In this document: in pieces, positions 16,421 to 57,897 of the stretch
How positions within the stretch are numbered: the stretch's first letter is position 1
How the letters are laid out: each line of letters opens with the position of its first letter
Program-made: the position numbers and the translations under genes
The notes under the pieces: generated by a model
Told to the model about the DNA's origin: nothing
The model's input: only the letters and a program-made list of their open reading frames with translations
Databases searched by the model: none
Assembly: GCF_963921235.1 (NCBI RefSeq)
Contig: NC_086107.1
Coordinates: 104,782,001-104,842,000, forward strand
Direction of reading: 5' to 3'
Length of the DNA stretch: 60,000 nt
Origin: Mobula hypostoma
Lineage: Eukaryota

Positions 16421-16887
16421 TTTCTTCTTCTTTGTGTTGCAGTTTCATCTGTTACTGGTTTGGATCATTTTTGATAAACTTTACTGTTATTCAAAAAGAA
16501 GAAATCAAATGAAAGGTTTTTAAATTGAGCAATTATTCTGATTGTAAACTTCATTTTTAGTTCACCATTAAAACGTAGAGCTAGAGCAGAAATGTGGAGC
16601 AAAAAAATTTCTATAATTTTTTTTGACATTATGCCAACCATGTTATGTTTACATTTTCCCCATGGGAAAATCTGTATTTACCAATTTGATTCCACAGTTT
16701 TACTGCTATATACCCACTTACTATATTTTGAAAAATCTGTAGTATCAACTAAAATTTTAAATTGGGTATTTTTAGCTATTCAGCAAATCTAATGCAGACA
16801 GTAGCTAGGATATGAAAATCAATAAAATTCCATTTTAGATGCTGTACAATTGTACATTATGTCCTTAATATGCATTATATGTTAATC

Positions 16888-18438
16888 TTTTGGTGAATGT
16901 ATGGAAGGCAGTTGGTCCAGGTAGAATACCTGGCCGTGTGCTCAGAGTCTGTGCAGGGCAGTTGGCCGGGGTCTTCACGGACATTTTTAATCTGTCCCTG
17001 GCCCAGGCAGTTGTCCCCATAAGCTTCAAGATCATCACCATTGTGCCAGTGCCAAAGTATTCCACTGCCACAGGCCTGAATGACTTCCGCCCAGTTGCAC
17101 TCACCTCCATCATTGCAAAGTGCTTTGAAAGACTGGTTCGATCACATCTGAAATCCTGTCTGCCCACTACCCTGGACCCCCATCAATTTGCCTATCGCAA
17201 CAACAGGTCAACAGAGGACGCCATCTCCATGGTACTTCACTCTGCCCTGACCCACCTGGACAGCCCCAACTCTTATGTCAGAATGCTGTTCACTGACTTT
17301 AGTTCAGCATTCAATACTGTGATCCCCTCCAAGCTGATCGCCAAACTTCACCAGCTTGGTATCAGCTTATCCCTCTGCAATTGGACCTTGGACTTTCTGA
17401 CTAACAGACCCCAATCAGTTAAGTTAGACAACCTCTGTTCCTCCACTCTCACCCTGAACACCGGTGTGCCTCAAGGCTGAGTGCTAAGCCCTCTTCTGTA
17501 TTCCCTTTTCACCTATGACTACGTTCCTGTACATGGTTCTAACTCCATAATCAAGTTCGCAGGCGACACCACAGTGGTTGGCCTGATCAGAGGGGATGAC
17601 GAGACGGCCTACAGGGACGAGGTCCAGCACCTGGCCGTGTGGTGTGCCGACAACAACCTGGCCCTTAACACCCAGAAGACCAAGGAGATCATTATGGACT
17701 TCAGGCATGCTAGGAGCCACACTCACGTCCCCATCTACATCAACGGAGCTGTAGTGGAGCATGTATCAAGCTTCAAGTTCCTTGGTGTCCACATTTCCGA
17801 GGATCTCACCTGGTCCCTGAACTCCTCCATCCTGGTCAAAAAGGCAGAACAGCGCCTTTATTTCCTGCGGAGCATGAAGGAAGCTCACCTCCGTCCCAGG
17901 ATACTGACGGACTTTTACCGCTGTACCATTGAGAGCATGCGCACCAACTGCATCTCAGTGTGGTATGGCAATTGTCCAGTATCGGACCGCAAAGCACTCC
18001 AGCGTGTGGTGAAACCTGCCCAGCGGATTATTGGCACCCAATTGCCTGACATTGAGAACATCTACCATAAACGCTGCCTGGGCAGGGCGATAAGCATTAT
18101 CAAGGATACATCTCACCCTAACTATGAACTTTTTACTCTCCTCCCATCCAGTAGGCGCTACAGGAGCCTCTGCTCCTGCACCAGCAGGTGCAGGAAGAGC
18201 TTCTTCCCTGAGGCTGTGACCCTGCTGAACCTCACACCACAATGCTAATCAGTATTCTACCCATGTTGTACTGTCTCAGTACTTTTATATTTGTGTGCTG
18301 TAGCACTTACTTTTTATTTGCAGTTATTTTGTAAATAACACTCTTCTTTGCATTTCTGGTCAGATGCTAACTTCATTTCATTGGCTTTGTATCTGTACTC
18401 GGCACAATGACAATGAAGTTAAATCTAATCTGATCTAA
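16888..18438 (+). mobile_element. 5'-truncated Rex1/Babar-clade LINE, reverse transcriptase pseudogene
   Basis: ORFs 16890-17480 and 17481-18248 are one frame broken by TGA in GVPQG*VLSP. Motifs [16 protein letters not shown], and FAGDT in place of catalytic FADDT. Tail of short repeats aatctaatctgatct. Confidence 0.93.
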
Positions 18439-38260: not shown

Positions 38261-38859
38261 AAATCTGAACCTCTACTGATGCTCATTGGAATTGTACTAA
38301 GCTTTGTATGTTCTGCTCTTTTTACGATAGGCTTTAGTTATCATTCGCTATTTCCTATTCTATTGTGTTTTTTTTCCCCTGTAATTTTCTATTTGTCCAC
38401 TCACTAGAACCCTAACCTTCCTCAATGACAGAAAATCCTGGAAATGCTCAACAAGTCAGACAGCATCTGTGGAAAGATAAGCCGAGTTAACGTTTCAGCT
38501 CAATTTGTCAGAACTAAAATTCTTTGATTAGGTGGTGTTCAATTTGTGGTAGGAGGAAGACATGTGGAAAATCCACAATCCTACTGCACATTTGTATTAG
38601 GAAAACTGTCCACATGAGTAATCTATATAACACACTTGCAATTTGTATTGAATTGAATATGTTCCTTTACAATGCATTTTATGCATGCTTAATTATTGAT
38701 ATATTTACATTAAAATATTGTTTTTCTTATAAAGTTAGATAATCCAAGATGAATAGTGAGCAACTCAATTACCACTGCTACAGAATTTTAAGAGGATTGT
38801 TTGCATCCACAACTCTTAATACACACTAACAACTTTGCAGTCTGACATCACTCATTGTA

Positions 38860-40455
38860 CAAACCCCATTTCCAGAAAAGTTGGGATATTTTCCAAAATG
38901 CAATAGAAACAGAAATCTGTGATATGCTAATTCATGTGAACCTTTATTTAACTGACAAAAGTACAAAGAAAAGATTTTCAATAGCTTTACTGCCCAACTT
39001 AATTGTATTTTGTCAACATACACAAATTTAGAATTTGATGGCTGCAACACACTCAACAAAAGTTGGGACAGAGGCATGTTTACCATTGTGTTACATCACC
39101 TTTCCTTTTAATAACACTTTTTAATCATTTTGGAACTGAGGATACTAATTGTAGATTTCCAATTGGAAATTTTGTCCATTCTTGCTTGATATAAGACCAG
39201 CTGCTCAGCAGTCCGTGGTCTCTGTTGTCCGATTCTCCTCTTCATGATGCGCCATACATTTTCAATAGGAGATAGATCTGGACTGGCAGCAGGCCAGTCA
39301 AGCACACGCACTCTGTGTCTACAAAGTCACGCTGTTGTAGCCCGAGCAGAATGTGGTCTGGCATTGTCCTGCTGAAGTATGCATGGACGTCCTGGGAAGA
39401 GACGTCACCTTGATGGCAACATATGTCTCTCTAAAATCCTAATGTACGCCTCAGAGTCAATGGTACCTTCACATACATGCATCTCACCCATGCCATGGGC
39501 ACTGATGCACCACCATACCATCACAGATGCTGGCTTTTGCACCTTTCGCTGATAACAATCTGGATGGTCATTTTCATCTTTGGCACGGAGAACTCGACAC
39601 CCGTTTTTTCCAAAAACCAGCTGAAATGTGGACTCATCTGAGCACAGCACACGGTTCCACAGTCTTTCGGTCCATCTGAGAGGAGCTCGGGCCCAGAGAA
39701 CTCGCCGGCGTTTCTGCATCGAGTTGATGTATGGCTTCCTTCTTGCGTAATACAGTTTCAGGTTGCATTTCTAGATGCAGCGACGGACTGTGTTGAATGA
39801 CAATGGTTTTCCAAAGTACTCCCGAGCCCAGGTGGCTATAATTGTCACAGTAGCATGACGGTTTCTTAGGCAGTGCTGCCTGAGGGCTCGAAGATCACGC
39901 GCGTTCAGCAGTGGTTTCCGACCTTGCCCTTTACGCACTGAGATGTCTGTGACTTCTCTGAATCTTTTCACAATATTATTTACTGTAGATGTTGAAAGAC
40001 CTAAATTCTCTGCAATCTTGCGTTGAGAAATGTTCCTTTTGAACTGACTAACAATTCTCTCACGAATTTTGGCACAAAGGGGTAAGCCACGACCCATCCT
40101 CGCTTGCAAAGACTGAGCCTTTGGATGCTACTGTTATACCCAGTCATGATACCTCACCTGCTATCAATTAGCCTGCTTAACGTGGAGTCTTCCAAACCGG
40201 TGTTACTTGAATATTCTGTGCACTTTTCAATGTTATTTTAACTCTGTCCCAACTTTTGTTGAGTGTGTTGCAGCCATCAAATTCTAAATTTGTGTATATT
40301 TACAAAATACAATTAAGTTGGTCAGTAAAACTATTGAAAATATTTTCTTTGTACTTTTGTCAGTTAAATAAAGGTTCACGTGAATTAACATATCACAGAT
40401 TTTTGTTTTCATTGCATTTTGGAAAATATCCCAACTTTTCTGGAAATGGGGTTTG
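38860..40455 (-). mobile_element. Full-length Tc1-like DNA transposon with ~210-bp TIRs
   Basis: TA flanks. TIRs start CAAACCCCATTTCCAGAAAAGTTGGGA (about 38860-39073 and 40242-40455). Transposase on the minus strand. Confidence 0.96.
39080..40097 (-). pseudogene. Tc1 DD34E-type transposase pseudogene
   Basis: MGRG..HTH..GRKP, VLCSDES, QQDNA and WPAASPDLSPIENVW motifs. Premature stops at 39771 and 39405 plus C-terminal frameshifts. Confidence 0.92.
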
Positions 40456-41114
40456 TACATAAAACCATGTTATTTGATGCTGCTTCCACCCTACAGTTCC
40501 CATGCGATTTCCTTGCAAATCATTGGTTCTACAGTTAGGAAGGTGGGCCAGCCTGCTTTAAGAAGGTTCATTGTTGGAGTGGAGATTAGTTTTGATACCT
40601 TCATTGCGAACTTCCTAGTGATCCAGCCACACACACCATAATGCCTAATAAAATCTTCTTTATCTTCTACCTTTACACAAGAAATTTAATTGATAGTTGC
40701 CAAATAAAACAACTGGTTGGAGCCCTTTTGAATTTTTGTTTTGTGCACCACTTTCCACCCCTGTCTTTTTGCTCCAAATCTGGGAGCAATGAAGTCCCAT
40801 GCATGCCTGACTCGTAGAAGTTCCTTCACAAACTAGGGAATGGAATACGTACATGCCTTCAGCTTCATTCAGAACAAGGTAATACCTTTATCTGCTAGGT
40901 CACAAACCAAAATGAGCTACACTCTCAGATCTTGGTAGATACTTTGAAAGACACGATCTTCAGTTATCTTCTTTTGTTTTAAATTAGCTGAACTCGTAGC
41001 TTTTCTTTATCATTGTTTTAAAGAAAATCTGTTGCATTTATTTTTTCCTACAAACTCCAGTTATTTTGTGTTCCACGTGTCAGCTTTGAGTTGACAGAAA
41101 CAGCATGCGATAAA

Positions 41115-43489: not shown

Positions 43490-43708
43490 GACACAAGACT
43501 ACAGATGGTGGAATCTGCAGCAACGCACAAGACCTTGGGGGAATTCAGCAGGTCAAGCAGCATCAATGGAGGAAAATGACATTGGAGGTTTCAGGTTGAG
43601 ACCCTTAATCTGTCATCCAGTTGAGGGGTCTTGACCCAAAATCTCAACTGTCCATTTCCTCTATAAATGCTGCCTGACCCACCAAGTTCCTGTAGCTTTT
43701 TGTGTTCT
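43490..43708. mobile_element. Fold-back pair of Penelope-like 3' ends
   Basis: cagcaggtcaagcagcatc...tcaggttgagaccctt mirrors ggggtcttgacccaaaa...atgctgcctgaccc around an axis near 43613. Confidence 0.75.
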
Positions 43709-43710
43709 TT

Positions 43711-44316
43711 TGAGACAGAGAGAGAAGGGAGGAGCTACTTGATGGATGGCTGGTGTTCAGCAGGGTGAGATAAATAGAAGGTCAGCTGGTAGACACAGAG
43801 ACACATGATTTTGGACACTGGATGAGCTTTGTTGTGCCCACAGCAGGTGGTCTTTTGGAGGATCGATCAGTGGCTCTCACAGTGTGGAGAAGGTGTGACT
43901 GGTGGGAAGTGTGTCCAACCCTCGCCTTGGTTGATGACTTCACCACAGAAAACGTCCCCTTGTTGTGGTCACATTCGGTGACTTCGAGAGGATTTTGGAG
44001 GACAGCGGGAAGAATTGACGACATCAGCTTACTCAAACAACAACAACCTCTCCATCACAACTCAACTCAGTACCATGAACTGAACTGAACTTTATCCATC
44101 ACTGTAATACTGTATCCATTTACCTCTAGGCTTGAAGAAGCTTGGTTTTTATATTTCCACGCTTATATGTATAATCATTGCTAACCTATTTGATATATCT
44201 GATATATTATTGTATTGTGTAGTTCCTAATAAACGAGTATTAGTTAATAGCAATTCCAAACTCCAAGGTGTCTTCCATTTCTGCTGGTTCTTTAACCTGT
44301 CACGGGGTACGTGACA
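43711..44316 (+). mobile_element. 5'-truncated LTR of a tRNA-Pro-primed LTR retroelement
   Basis: TATA-like GATAAATA near 43769, AATAAA at 44228, terminus ...TGTCACGGGGTACGTGACA, then AAAT and the primer binding site TGGGGGCTCGTCTGGGAT. Confidence 0.8.
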
Positions 44317-44320
44317 AAAT

Positions 44321-44383
44321 TGGGGGCTCGTCTGGGATTTGAACCCAAGACCTCTTGCACCCAAAGTGAGAATCATACCCCTA
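44321..44383 (-). pseudogene. Reverse-transcribed tRNA-Pro(TGG) copy with CCA, lacking the 5' 12 nt (extended primer binding site)
   Basis: Reverse complement TAGGGGTATGATTCTCACTTTGGGTGCAAGAGGTCTTGGGTTCAAATCCCAGACGAGCCCCCA is 58/63 identical to the recalled vertebrate tRNA-Pro(TGG), with mostly CpG-type differences. Confidence 0.92.
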
Positions 44384-45134
44384 CTCATTCCTGATTAGAT
44401 TGTCTGGCATTTTGAATGGGGTGAATTCACAAAACTTACTTGGTACCTCTAACTGCACAAAGTTATATTCTAAAATGTAGCAAAAATGAGTGACAAGATA
44501 GCAGTGGCTCTGTATGAAATGGGCATGGAAATACTTAACTTGCCTTGTTCATTGTAGCATTGTTTGTCTATTACTATTAAACATCCAGAAATGAGTCTAA
44601 AATATTAGACCTCGTTACATCAGGAAAAAAAAATCACTTTACGATAAATTTAACATTTCATACTGTTCAGGAAAATACCATGAGTGGGGTTCTAAATCGA
44701 TAAGTTGAGCAAACCCCGAACTCACAGAAAGATAGAAGAGTGATAGATTCAACTTGAAAATAGATTGCATTTTTTGATCCAGAATGATTAATTCTGACTC
44801 CTGGTTTGAACAAATTATTGATAGCTGATCTCACAGCAAAGGCAGTATTTGGAAGTGAGGTGATCAATTTTTCTAACTGGCCAATCAAACTCTATTTTGG
44901 AAATTTTTGATATTTTAATAGTTGAATTGGTGAGAGGATTGGAACGGAATCAGAGCAATGTGACCTTAGAAAAAAGGTGGCATAAGTTTTATTTCAAAAT
45001 ACAGCAGTATTCCAGCCCACTTGTGATTCTCAATCTATGGGAAAAATCTGGGGTAAGGAAGCTAAATCTTAAATATTGTTTTGCAAACCTGGAATAATTA
45101 ATGGGTGAAGAAATGCATCCCCCTCACCTCCATT

Positions 45135-45790
45135 CAAGGCCAAGTGAGCTAACATTTCACCTAATCTGTTGGGGTCATCTATTGCATCCAGTGCTCCCAA
45201 TGTGACCTACTCTGCATTGGTGAGACCTAACCCAACGTAAATTGGGGATCACTTTGTCAAGCACCTCCGTTCTATCCACAATAATTGGGAATTTGCTGGT
45301 GACCAACCATTTTAATTACTATCCCCATTCCTGTTCCAAGATGTTGGTCCATAGCATCCTCTTCTGCTATAATAAGGCCACTCTCAGGGTATGTGAGCAA
45401 CCCCTCATATTCCTTCTAGGTAGCCTCCAATCTGATGGCATGAACATCGATTTCTCCTTTCAGTATTCTTTTCTTTTCCTCTCCTCCTATCTTCTTCTAT
45501 TCCCCACTCTGGCCTCTTACCTCTCTTCACCTGCCTACTTCCTCTTAGTGCACCTCTTTCCTCTCCAGCCCTTGCCTTTCCCACCCACCTTGCTTCACCT
45601 ATCACCTAGCTTGCCTCCTTTACCTCTCCCTTTCTATTCTGACATCTTACCCCTTCCTTTCCAGTCCTGATGAAGTGTCTCGGCCCAAAACATCATCAGT
45701 TTATTCATTTCCGTAGATGCTGCCTAACCTGCTGACTTTCACCAGCATTTTGTGTGTTACTATGGATTTCCAAAATCTGCAGAATCTCTT
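45135..45790 (+). mobile_element. 5'-truncated Penelope-like retroelement (GIY-YIG remnant plus 3' end)
   Basis: GVIYCIQCSQCDLLCIGET, NHFNYYPHS and EQPLIFLLGSLQSDGMNIDF. Hammerhead-like motif at 45662-45699. Confidence 0.85.
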
Positions 45791-53975: not shown

Positions 53976-55122
53976 TTTTTTAAGTGTTCTCACCTACTGC
54001 CTGCCCAAGTCTAGTTTTTTTCCCCATCTCTCTGTCATTTCCCCTGTCATTCCCCCTTTCCCTCCCATATTTTTTGTCCACATGATTAATGTGCTGTAAA
54101 TTTTCTGGTTATTCAACACAAAAGCAGACATACTGAATCTGTGTCAAGCATTTTTTTTTCCCTGTGTATCATTTATCATGCCAGAATCATGAGGAAAATT
54201 TAATATTTCATCAATGTTGGCAACTAAATATGGGAATGGATCTCAGAAATTCAGCATGAGTTTTAAACTGCTAGCTATTTGGAAATGGATTAATATTTGC
54301 AAGGATCCTACACAGAAATGCTGAGAAACCAATAATTTATGGTACTTTTTCATGCAGAATGTGTATTTTGCACAACTGTTCTGTTGGTATTAGTCATTCA
54401 CTCAAACATGATGCTGCCATTTGAAAACTATTAATGAGCAATGAGACTGGTGAACTCTGATTACCTAAAGGATCATTACTGGAAATAGCTTTCATGTATT
54501 CTGTCAATCTGAAATTTGTGTTTTGGGCCACATAGTTGAATGATTGTTGTATCGTGCTGTTTTGATTCTTTTGATCTTGCTTCTATGTTTCAAAACCAGA
54601 AATTTGAAAATGGTTTCATTTTCAAACTTTCTCTTGCCCCCCCGCCCAACAAAAGCTGCCATATAATTTTGCTAATCTAAATATTAACAATTATCTTATG
54701 CAAATATATAAAAATAGAAAATACACCGGAAGTAATGTTTGCCAGCATTTAGAAAAGGCGAGAGCCAACTTAAGGTTTCCAAGGCTTTCATGCTAATGTC
54801 CTTTAGGCATTATCCTCCCAATTCTCTTCTCAGATACTTCCATGTGGTATTTCAGATATTTGGCATATATAGTTTTTAACTTCATCTTTACAGGGAATAA
54901 GTATGATTTCTAATATTTCAGTAATTTCTGAAAAAATTTGGTATTAAAAATGAACAGACATAATGCTTCAGTAACCTAAAGGGGAAATATCATGCACAAT
55001 TGTTGTTAATGTCTTGAATGTGGTCATGTCAGTCAGGTCATTGAATATTCACATTTAACTCCTATCCAAGAATGTCATAAGAAACGTTCCTCAAATGTCA
55101 TTTTTCATTCATGTTTCTTCAG

Positions 55123-55374
55123 GGTAGCCAGGAGCCAGCAGCCACCCCAGAAGCTATGGTACAGCCGTATGCAACAGTTCCATTCCCTCCTCCCCCTCCT
55201 CCTCCTCCTCCACAGAATGGAATTCCAACAGAATACACTGTTCCACACACTCAGGACTACACAGGTCAGACGCCAGTCCCAGATCATAGTCTGAACATCT
55301 ACGCATCCAGTCAGACCCTTGGGGAACAGAGTGGCACAATTGCCAATGTACAGCCTGTATCTGGAACCGCCACA
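55123..55374 (+). CDS. RBFOX2: RBFOX2 (RNA-binding Fox-1 homolog) first shared coding exon, 84 codons, phase 0/0
   Basis: Acceptor ttcattcatgtttcttcAG ends at 55122 and donor GTAAGT starts at 55375. Translation [22 protein letters not shown]9[20 protein letters not shown]...VSGTAT matches the recalled RBFOX2 N-terminus [45 protein letters not shown]. Confidence 0.93.
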
Positions 55375-57897
55375 GTAAGTTAAAATCTGGGCTTTAGTCT
55401 TCATCTTACATGGTGATGCAATGCAAAAAAAAAGTTCAATTTTCTGTTTCAAGTTACATGCCACAGCAAGAATAAAATAATGTGGAATATTTGGTTTTAC
55501 AAGTGGTCAACTTGCCATATTTGTGTGTCATTTATATTTAAAGAAAGTAACTTCAGAATTCTAGCAACCCATTCACTGTTTATATTATGGTAACAATGCC
55601 CCAGGATCTGCATGTTTGCAGTTTATGAATAAAATTTTAAAACAAATGCGCAATTAATATAAATTAAAATTTTTGATTTGAGAAGACCAGCTGAAATTTA
55701 AGTGCATTGTCTGTTTGCATGAGTGTCTTCTATATAGCAAGACCTAAGAAAATCTAATTATTTTGTTTTAACCAATAGAACCTGTTTAACGTTTCTGTTG
55801 GTGACCCCCTATAACTGAAGGAGAAAACCCCCTGCCCAGTGAAAGATTTGCTGGTTCTATAGTAACATGCGAATTTGCTGTCGTCTCTAAGAGAACTCAG
55901 TCATTGGTCTAAAAGTCCTTTCCTATCATTAAAAATTAATGTTTCTGCTTTAAAATAATGGAAACATTGTATGACACAGGGCCAAGTGTATGGTTTGTGT
56001 GGTAATTGAATGAAAGTCACTCGCATCTAAATGAAGTACTTCCCTCTAGCATCTATATTCCTTGTATTGCCCACACTGTTAAGAATTTAAACATTTGCTG
56101 TCTGATTTATAAATGACTTTGTACACTTTCTGTGCTGTTTAGTCATGTCTGGAAACACTAACAAACATGTAGGATAGTGGATACCTGGAGCTAATTCCTC
56201 CAAAAGAACAGAAGGCAAAGGCAATTGAAAATGTGAAAAACTGAATTTAACAGATATTACAGCAAACAATTTTTAAAATGTTACAAAATTCAAACCAGAT
56301 AAATAATAATTAAGATGCGTGGTAGATCAGTCATGATATAATTGAGTGCAGAGCGATTCTTAAAGAACTAAAGGAAGTTCATGTGTTATAATGGATGCAA
56401 GTTTACTTGGTGATTTCACTACAGTCTGGTATCATTAAGTGCCTTAAATGCAGTTAACTTTCATGCTCATCTTTCCAAGTGGTCAAAATGGCACAGTTTC
56501 ATCAGCAATAAAAAGCATATCTCCTTTGCTCGAGTTTGCATTTATCTTGCATGTTTGTCTTATTTTGTATGATTTAGCAGAATTCAGCTTATACTTAAAC
56601 ACAAGATCCTAAAAAGGTCCATTCTGGCTCTCTTTTTTCAGTCCCCTTGCAACTTACTCTCCTGCACATGTACCAGTTAATTCATTTATTTTGATAGTAA
56701 CTCCCAAAGGGTAATCTGAAGAAGCCAATTGACCTATTAGTCAGTCTTTATGCTTTGGGAGGAAATGGCAGTACCTGGTTTAAAACCATGAGGTCACAGA
56801 GAACTGTGAAGATAACACCCAAGGTCACAAATGAACTCAAATTCCTGGAGCTGCTATGCAGCCATATTAACCGCTTCTCCATCTTGCCTATGTTTGCTCA
56901 TAATTAATGGACATAAATCACAGTTCAACTTCATAGTATTATTGTTAACATGGTTGCTTACCAGGTCCAGGAATATTCTGGAAAATCAACAAATCAGTAC
57001 ACAGAGCAGCCCCTTTTTTCATCTAATGAATTATTGTAAAGTTCTGAATCCTTTTATCTGAGAATATTACAGCTCTCACCAGCGGTAATTAATGGTCTAG
57101 TTGTGGAATAAACCCTTCTGACCAGAACATTAACTAGTAAGATACTATTTAGATTTCTTTTATCCTTAACTTTTTAACTGTGAACTGACTTCCAGTCAGT
57201 TGCAAATACTTTGAGTTTTGGGTTCACCCTAGATTTGATTATCCAATGTGAAAGATGCCCATATGTAGCTTTTTGCAAGAACAGTTGAATATATTGGCCT
57301 GTAACTAATGGGGATAAATGTAATCTTCTAAATGGTCATGTGCGCAGGTTAAAAAAAGTTGTATTTTTATTTTAATTTATTAAAATGATCACTGGCTTAA
57401 GTTCTTCTGTTTTTGTGGAGGGTTCTATGTTGGCAATCAAGCAACTTGTCCTGCTTTTCTCAGTTAGGATGCTGGGTTATAGAAGCAGTCTCTATGCCTG
57501 TTTGAAAGGGTCTTTGACAAAGAGTACATGGAGAGGCCACACTGTCGATACTTGATGGCTTACACAGCTGTCAAACCAGTCCAACATGTTCAGTCCTTTC
57601 ACCCTCTGTTCTAGTTCTGATGTTCCTGGACAACTGTACTCAGAAGGCCATGTGGTGTATTTTGAATACAATATTCAAAACCATTTTTCTATTGCTTTGC
57701 CCTCCTTAAGATGCAGCATTTGGTTATAAAATGAAGTAGGAAATAGTTGCCTTGGTCTCTGAGAGGATTGTAAACGTATACTGCCTTGTATCCAGACTGT
57801 GCTACATAGTCGTCAGATTTTCTGATCCAGATTCAGTTTCACAGTTCTGAGCGTGGACTTCAATTTTTCCTTTTGCTACGTAGCTCACAAATGAATA

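Follow-up and report, generated by a model that had tools for sequence, protein, structure and literature searches.

Long terminal repeat ends joined to antisense copies of their tRNA-Pro primer in the Mobula hypostoma genome

In a 60,000-nucleotide stretch of the Mobula hypostoma genome (contig NC_086107.1, positions 104,782,001 to 104,842,000; hereafter the window), the end of a long terminal repeat (LTR) is fused in register to an antisense copy of a mature tRNA-Pro (positions 43711-44383). We regard this copy, with a probability of about three in four, as an over-extended plus-strand strong-stop DNA that was captured at a break without integrase. Across the genome, such read-through is the outcome of recurrent independent events in several tRNA-Pro-primed LTR families.

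The course of events that we propose would begin when a Gmr1-like Gypsy element was reverse-transcribed from its tRNA-Pro primer. Synthesis of the plus strand would copy the LTR and run into the still-attached primer, and the enzyme would pass A58 and G37 and halt in the D-arm; the product of this process is seen in the DNA, while the process itself is presumed. The over-extended DNA would be unable to complete plus-strand transfer, and a germ-line double-strand break would then have been patched with it by end joining guided by microhomology, a pathway suggested by the observed junctions. Capture would have cost the LTR its first ~157 nt and the target 17 bases, and produced no target duplication. 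The same accident would have recurred often, in several LTR families that use the tRNA-Pro primer, and modifications carried by the mature tRNA (m1A58, m1G37, and I34 or a modified U34) would be reflected in where the copies stop and which bases they misread.

The LTR piece, the primer copy and the empty site

The GTGACA terminus, the 4-nt spacer and the 63-nt tRNA-Pro match with CCA named in the original prediction are all present at 44311-44383 (Table 1). The LTR segment had been placed from 43711 onwards; its match in fact begins in the LTR interior at 43715, and 43711-43714 is host DNA. Compared with close copies, the piece lacks the first ~157 nt of a roughly 785-820-nt LTR. That no gag or pol follows was borne out, as no open reading frame of at least 100 amino acids occurs in 44088-45224. 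The locus thus shows what defines an over-extended product, namely a U5 end, a spacer, the primer site in register, and then the complement of a mature, CCA-bearing tRNA. U3, which such a product also contains, is present in the sister copy L059/L042 and may be present in the window copy.

Table 1. Features of the locus, in window coordinates
Feature	Position	Strand	Remarks
Host repeat, family D1	43657..43714	+	7 copies in window; insert sits in its tail
5'-truncated LTR, Gmr1-like Ty3/Gypsy family	43715..44316	+	602 nt; ends GTGACA
Left junction microhomology, 5-7 nt	43715..43721	+	LTR interior equals empty site; alignment ends at 43719 (X13) and 43721 (X17)
Poly(A)-signal-like AATAAA	44228	+	inside LTR piece
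LTR terminus GTGACA	44311-44316	+	
Family spacer, 4 nt, from LTR end to primer site	44317..44320	+	same in ordinary copies
Primer binding site, 18 nt	44321..44338	+	complement of tRNA-Pro positions 76-59, CCA included
Read-through copy of tRNA-Pro positions 58 to about 13-15	44339..44383	+	T-loop, anticodon arm, D-arm
Right junction microhomology, 3 nt	44381..44383	+	from empty-site alignment

The tRNA match (44321-44383) is identical at 58 of 63 positions to a genomic tRNA-Pro(TGG) gene called by ARAGORN (L082) with a CCA end appended, and four of the five differences fall at CpG positions; the copy has decayed at CpG sites since insertion and is probably without function. The match is 63 nt long, as predicted, but 44381-44383 also occurs in the empty site, so that the length copied from the tRNA is 60-63 nt. 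The anticodon had been given as TGG; it may be that or a CpG-decayed CGG. The D-loop is of the intron-less isodecoder type. Neither ARAGORN nor Rfam made a call on the fragment, and its folding was unremarkable (z 0.26).

A pattern search confirmed by ARAGORN found tRNA-Pro genes with the anticodons AGG, CGG and TGG and none with GGG, AGG being the commonest. None of the 12 genes inspected encodes CCA, whereas the window copy carries it, and the template was therefore a mature tRNA, in agreement with the original prediction. A further set of tRNA-Pro-like genes (L060, L066, L067 and L069-L073, on contigs C90, C64, C67 and C154) has a 16-17-nt insertion between positions 37 and 38, which is the intron position; their D-loop differs, and ARAGORN miscalls or misses them. 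Intron-containing tRNA-Pro genes are unusual in vertebrates.

That the upstream segment is an LTR was upheld by a related ordinary copy, L044, whose LTR is 69% identical to that of the window. Its two LTRs are 88% alike, end in TG..CA and are flanked by a 4-bp target duplication (the same four bases on both sides), and between them Pfam recognises Integrase_H2C2 and rve, then RVT_1, then RT_RNaseH. A SCAN-type gag was found by Pfam in L043, so the domain evidence for the family comes from these two copies. An integrase upstream of the reverse transcriptase and RNase H, together with a SCAN-type gag, is what we take to be the Gmr1-like arrangement of Ty3/Gypsy elements.

We aligned contigs of four coded organisms (A, B, D and E) to the stretch. 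The right junction in its filled state is spanned by contigs of organisms A and B, which differ from the window at 0 of 873 and 19 of 914 letters. At the left junction a carrier alignment (X5) extends 30 letters past 43714, short of a formal bridge. Organisms E and D have the empty site, which had been sought in relatives, and differ from the window at 32 of 782 and 61 of 811 letters in the right flank. The insertion is therefore later than the split from E and earlier than the parting of A and B. The empty-site contigs match the window to 43721 (X17) or 43719 (X13), continue with 17 other letters and resume at 44381; the target thus lost 17 bases between the junctions and shows no target duplication. 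The microhomology lengths in Table 1 are taken from these alignment ends rather than from inspection of the letters.

An integrase-made insertion or a solo LTR would have a complete U3 end and a target duplication, whereas the window copy has neither. By contrast, the target deletion, the junction microhomology and the missing duplication expected of cDNA captured at a double-strand break were all found against two outgroup organisms. Together, the truncated U3 end, the 17-base loss, the missing duplication and the microhomology argue for the patching of a double-strand break, not for integrase, and the empty site supports the original suggestion of a plus-strand strong-stop read-through captured without integrase.

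The captured molecule could alternatively have been a minus strand that still carried its RNA primer (R-U5 strong-stop DNA or longer), the tRNA being copied during repair. Such a molecule would account for the absent first ~157 nt of the LTR and is of the same type as the retained-primer model of Colicelli and Goff, as described in PMC12220202. We consider it unlikely, because the sister copy L059/L042 has the whole LTR from its first base, and because a candidate GATAAA motif at 43769 hints at a transcription start downstream of 43715. Less probable again is that integrase inserted a larger aberrant element, which deletions at either end later cut down. L042, which has the same four bases at both of its U3 ends, shows that integrase-made structures of that kind exist, but trimming would need two deletions that end in microhomologies and together remove only 17 host bases, and the right junction is shared by organisms A and B.

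Pseudogenes of tRNAs do occur in this genome (L087-L091 and L094), and an independent tRNA retropseudogene or SINE head might by chance have come to lie beside a solo LTR. We judge this very improbable given the exact register with the family spacer, the joint absence of LTR and tRNA from the empty site, and the lack of a tail and of a duplication; the genomic pseudogenes, moreover, have neither CCA nor LTR ends. A tRNA-derived SINE or a LINE-made retropseudogene was also rejected as a class for the window copy, in which the first 12 or more tRNA nucleotides are missing, no tail is present and the junction is unique.

Read-through copies across the genome

A search of the 3.48-Gb genome for the LTR end returned 2718 first-look candidates. 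Pattern searches of the genome then recovered 120 copies in which an 18-nt primer site is followed by internal sequence (two mismatches allowed) and 188 further copies with a variant primer site that mismatches tRNA-Pro (one mismatch allowed), the latter outnumbering the former. Against these at least 308 ordinary primer sites, nine copies run on as tRNA, including the window copy, a copy that has just 7 LTR bases and another of a different LTR subtype. The extended copies differ in end point, and none then enters gag. A genome pattern search for extended copies with the variant, non-tRNA-matching primer site gave 0 matches, which indicates that the extended tract was templated by the tRNA and not by element RNA.

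The original prediction had offered a choice between a one-off event and a family that carries a near-complete tRNA as its primer site, to be decided by the length of the tRNA match after each LTR copy. The census fits neither, since extended copies number nine rather than one, and read-through recurs independently in several LTR families. A family design has in its favour a duplicated primer site with a 35-nt extension in seven near-identical places (the L074 group), but nine extended copies with ends that all differ and no gag after them, against 120 and 188 ordinary ones, make it the least credible of the explanations considered.

We also searched with a pattern blind to the LTR. This gave 40 matches, and among the 30 fetched, 16 open with the complement of CCA. 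All 16 have a CA-ending LTR-type end, of several kinds, 2-5 nt upstream, although for about half of them the LTR assignment is by the end motif alone. The other 14 comprise 13 gene-type sequences without CCA and one duplicated primer site. Two more long copies, of 67 and 69 nt, were present among 8 further matches, and the read-through end points overall spread from 27 to about 75 nt.

The over-extended molecules met several other fates, seen as tail-to-tail LTR joins, as jumps at short matches, and as a copy that has two U3 ends and is flanked by a 4-bp duplication. In that last copy (L042, C63:62700300-62710244), a full LTR with a 69-nt tRNA copy is joined to the rest of the element in inverted orientation. 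The structure has a U3 end on each outer side, next to the same four bases, which indicates that an aberrant cDNA was accepted by integrase. Integrase-free capture is thus not the sole route by which extended copies were fixed. Elsewhere, LTR pairs lie tail to tail with a 34-39-nt tRNA copy as filler (L035, L036, L055 and L058), and extended primer copies of 27 and 33 nt (L034 and L038) pass into sequence near the 3' end of the element, as if the over-long DNA had itself acted as a primer at a short chance match. In L074 and six like matches on small contigs, a primer site that has A opposite A58 and is extended by 35 nt is followed by a second primer site and then by normal internal sequence. 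A second site in L005/L040, about 280 nt downstream of the ordinary primer site, is a near-complete tRNA-Pro copy with an internal deletion. The anticodon loop of L045 is flipped in orientation after nt 38, and in L047 a tRNA copy with few LTR bases is flanked by two 180-nt direct repeats.

Probable traces of primer modification and a possible over-extension sequence

Numbered from the CCA end, nt 19 corresponds to A58, nt 40 to G37 and nt 43 to the wobble base. In six of 15 independent copies the tRNA match ends at nt 39, immediately ahead of G37 (p about 1e-4, geometric null); in a strict count that scores L058 as 40, the figure is five of 15 (p 1e-3). L051 was dropped as a duplicate of L050, and L092 and L093 were left out because they came from a pattern favouring long copies; the stop and mismatch statistics cover the tRNA-Pro primer alone. 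Opposite A58, a mismatch was found in 4 of 20 extended copies, compared with 14 of 526 non-CpG background positions (p 0.0017). The wobble base in the nine LTR-linked copies that reach nt 43 is C in three, A in five, G in one and T in none, although AGG genes are the commonest; C is the reading of no gene. In 25 matches of a further pattern, wobble C was confined to two LTR-linked copies, and T stood in 10 genes or pseudogenes without CCA.

According to two published sources, m1G blocks AMV reverse transcriptase, human Pro-UGG carries m1G37 while Pro-AGG gives no signal, and inosine is read as C in the copy (PMC8062790), and a wobble C can also arise from a modified U34 (PMC11251516). From these human and yeast data we infer that the stops at nt 39, the wobble C and the mismatches opposite A58 may be signatures of m1G37, of I34 or a modified U34, and of m1A58, respectively. 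Because tRNA-Pro genes broken between positions 37 and 38 exist, the ends at nt 39 could also be run-off from a cleaved 3' exon. Marks of a modified RNA template are seen in the set of copies, not in the window copy alone, in which positions 58, 37 and 34 are all read correctly, so that the evidence on modification comes from the other copies only. The under-modified primer of the original prediction fits the correct bases opposite A58 and G37 in the window copy, and on that footing may be presumed for it.

Downstream of nt 18, the ordinary copies have one variable base followed by five tRNA-matching bases, of which nt 22-24 were fixed by the search pattern. By hand count of the 100 listed among 105 matches, nt 19 is A in 74, T in 10, C in 10 and G in 6. 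In the same 100, nt 19 varies in 26, nt 20 in 3 and nt 21 in none, and nt 18, 20 and 21 jointly differ in 4 of 300 positions. The excess variability of nt 19 over nt 18, 20 and 21 has a Fisher p of 2e-13, for copies that are not independent. Such a run of tRNA-matching bases, kept beyond a variable base opposite A58, resembles the primer over-extension sequence of lentiviruses and spumaviruses (PMC13191261; PMC8599865), whose bases downstream of the primer site match the tRNA T-loop. The resemblance has limits: the putative element here belongs to a Gmr1-like retrotransposon, uses a tRNA-Pro primer and shows four states opposite A58.

Indirect tests of a lentivirus-like over-extension sequence in the family gave mixed evidence, and we hold its presence to be possible though doubtful. 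In the variant-site copies, the base opposite A58 is A in 28, T in 21, C in 8 and G in 1 of 58 (hand count of the 100 listed among 188, with five ambiguous rows, all A, set aside), and a prediction that T would dominate there failed. One sub-lineage among the same 100 has A opposite A58 in 37 of 37 copies. This means that the nt-19 base is inherited and that the position is not a mutational hot spot; it is no proof of rewriting opposite A58. A tree of 29 LTRs, from a biased sample with long branches, requires nine changes opposite A58, and 136 of 1000 shuffles were as low. In a second LTR-end type, the over-extension motif occurs in only 11 of 108 copies.

Relation to known systems and significance

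Retroviral plus-strand strong-stop DNA overruns the primer when m1A58 fails to stop it and then cannot complete transfer (Fukuda 2021, PMC8599865; Syu 2024, PMC11251516). Our copies likewise join an LTR to a primer copy longer than 18 nt, but the retroviral products were non-integrating and seen in vitro or in cell lines, whereas those described here are fixed in the germ line, belong to a Gypsy element and recur. In Ty1 and Ty3, the initial strong-stop DNA, which includes tRNA sequence, builds up as a dead-end product, and the element does not inherit its primer site from the tRNA (PMC5371799); Ty1 cDNA is also captured at double-strand breaks (reviewed in PMC7175516). The present case shares with them a Ty3/Gypsy-type element, a tRNA-containing by-product and the patching of breaks by cDNA, and the 188 copies with a non-matching primer site fit the rule that primer sequence is not inherited. 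The yeast products copy 12 nt of the primer, while ours, as dated vertebrate fossils, contain 27 to about 75 nt. Similar in form are a circular MoMLV DNA whose LTRs have a nearly complete copy of tRNA-Gly between them (Colicelli and Goff 1986, via PMC12220202) and an HIV provirus with 67 nt of tRNA-Gly next to it (PMC12220202), each showing a CCA-bearing, 5'-truncated tRNA cDNA adjoining an LTR end. Those were single laboratory clones with a non-cognate tRNA, whereas here the cognate primer lies in register and many independent events are involved. The literature searched, which covered few subscription journals, contained no report of germ-line fossils of an LTR with an extended primer, nor of an over-extension motif in retrotransposons.

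Taken alone, the locus is probably a neutral relic within an intron-like region, and the interest lies in the genome-wide pattern. Within the window, a proline-rich frame at 55081-55383, for which Pfam gave no hit, resembles an RBFOX N-terminal exon, and the tRNA copy may lie inside an intron of that gene. The window also contains the remains of a DNA transposon whose inverted ends measure 218 nt and which has an HTH-bearing frame (38856-40459) and decayed LINE reverse-transcriptase frames (16869-18248).

For the family as a whole we offer, with more doubt than conviction, a model in which the plus strand of the Gmr1-like element would often overrun m1A58, a lentivirus-like over-extension sequence would be retained as a rescue for short overruns, and misincorporation would occasionally rewrite the base opposite A58. 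Longer overruns would become fixed germ-line tRNA cDNAs that can be dated, a fossil read-out of m1A58, m1G37 and I34. If that part concerning the over-extension sequence holds, such sequences would extend beyond retroviruses. Failures of reverse transcription described in vitro and in cultured cells have repeatedly entered the vertebrate germ line, and where the copies end and which bases they misread seem to record how the primer tRNA was modified at the time. This pattern of stops and misreadings makes it testable from genome sequence how firmly m1A58 halts plus-strand synthesis in vivo, which is debated, and what halts it next. If the model is true, repeat-rich vertebrate genomes could be mined for germ-line tRNA modification, for every primer tRNA.
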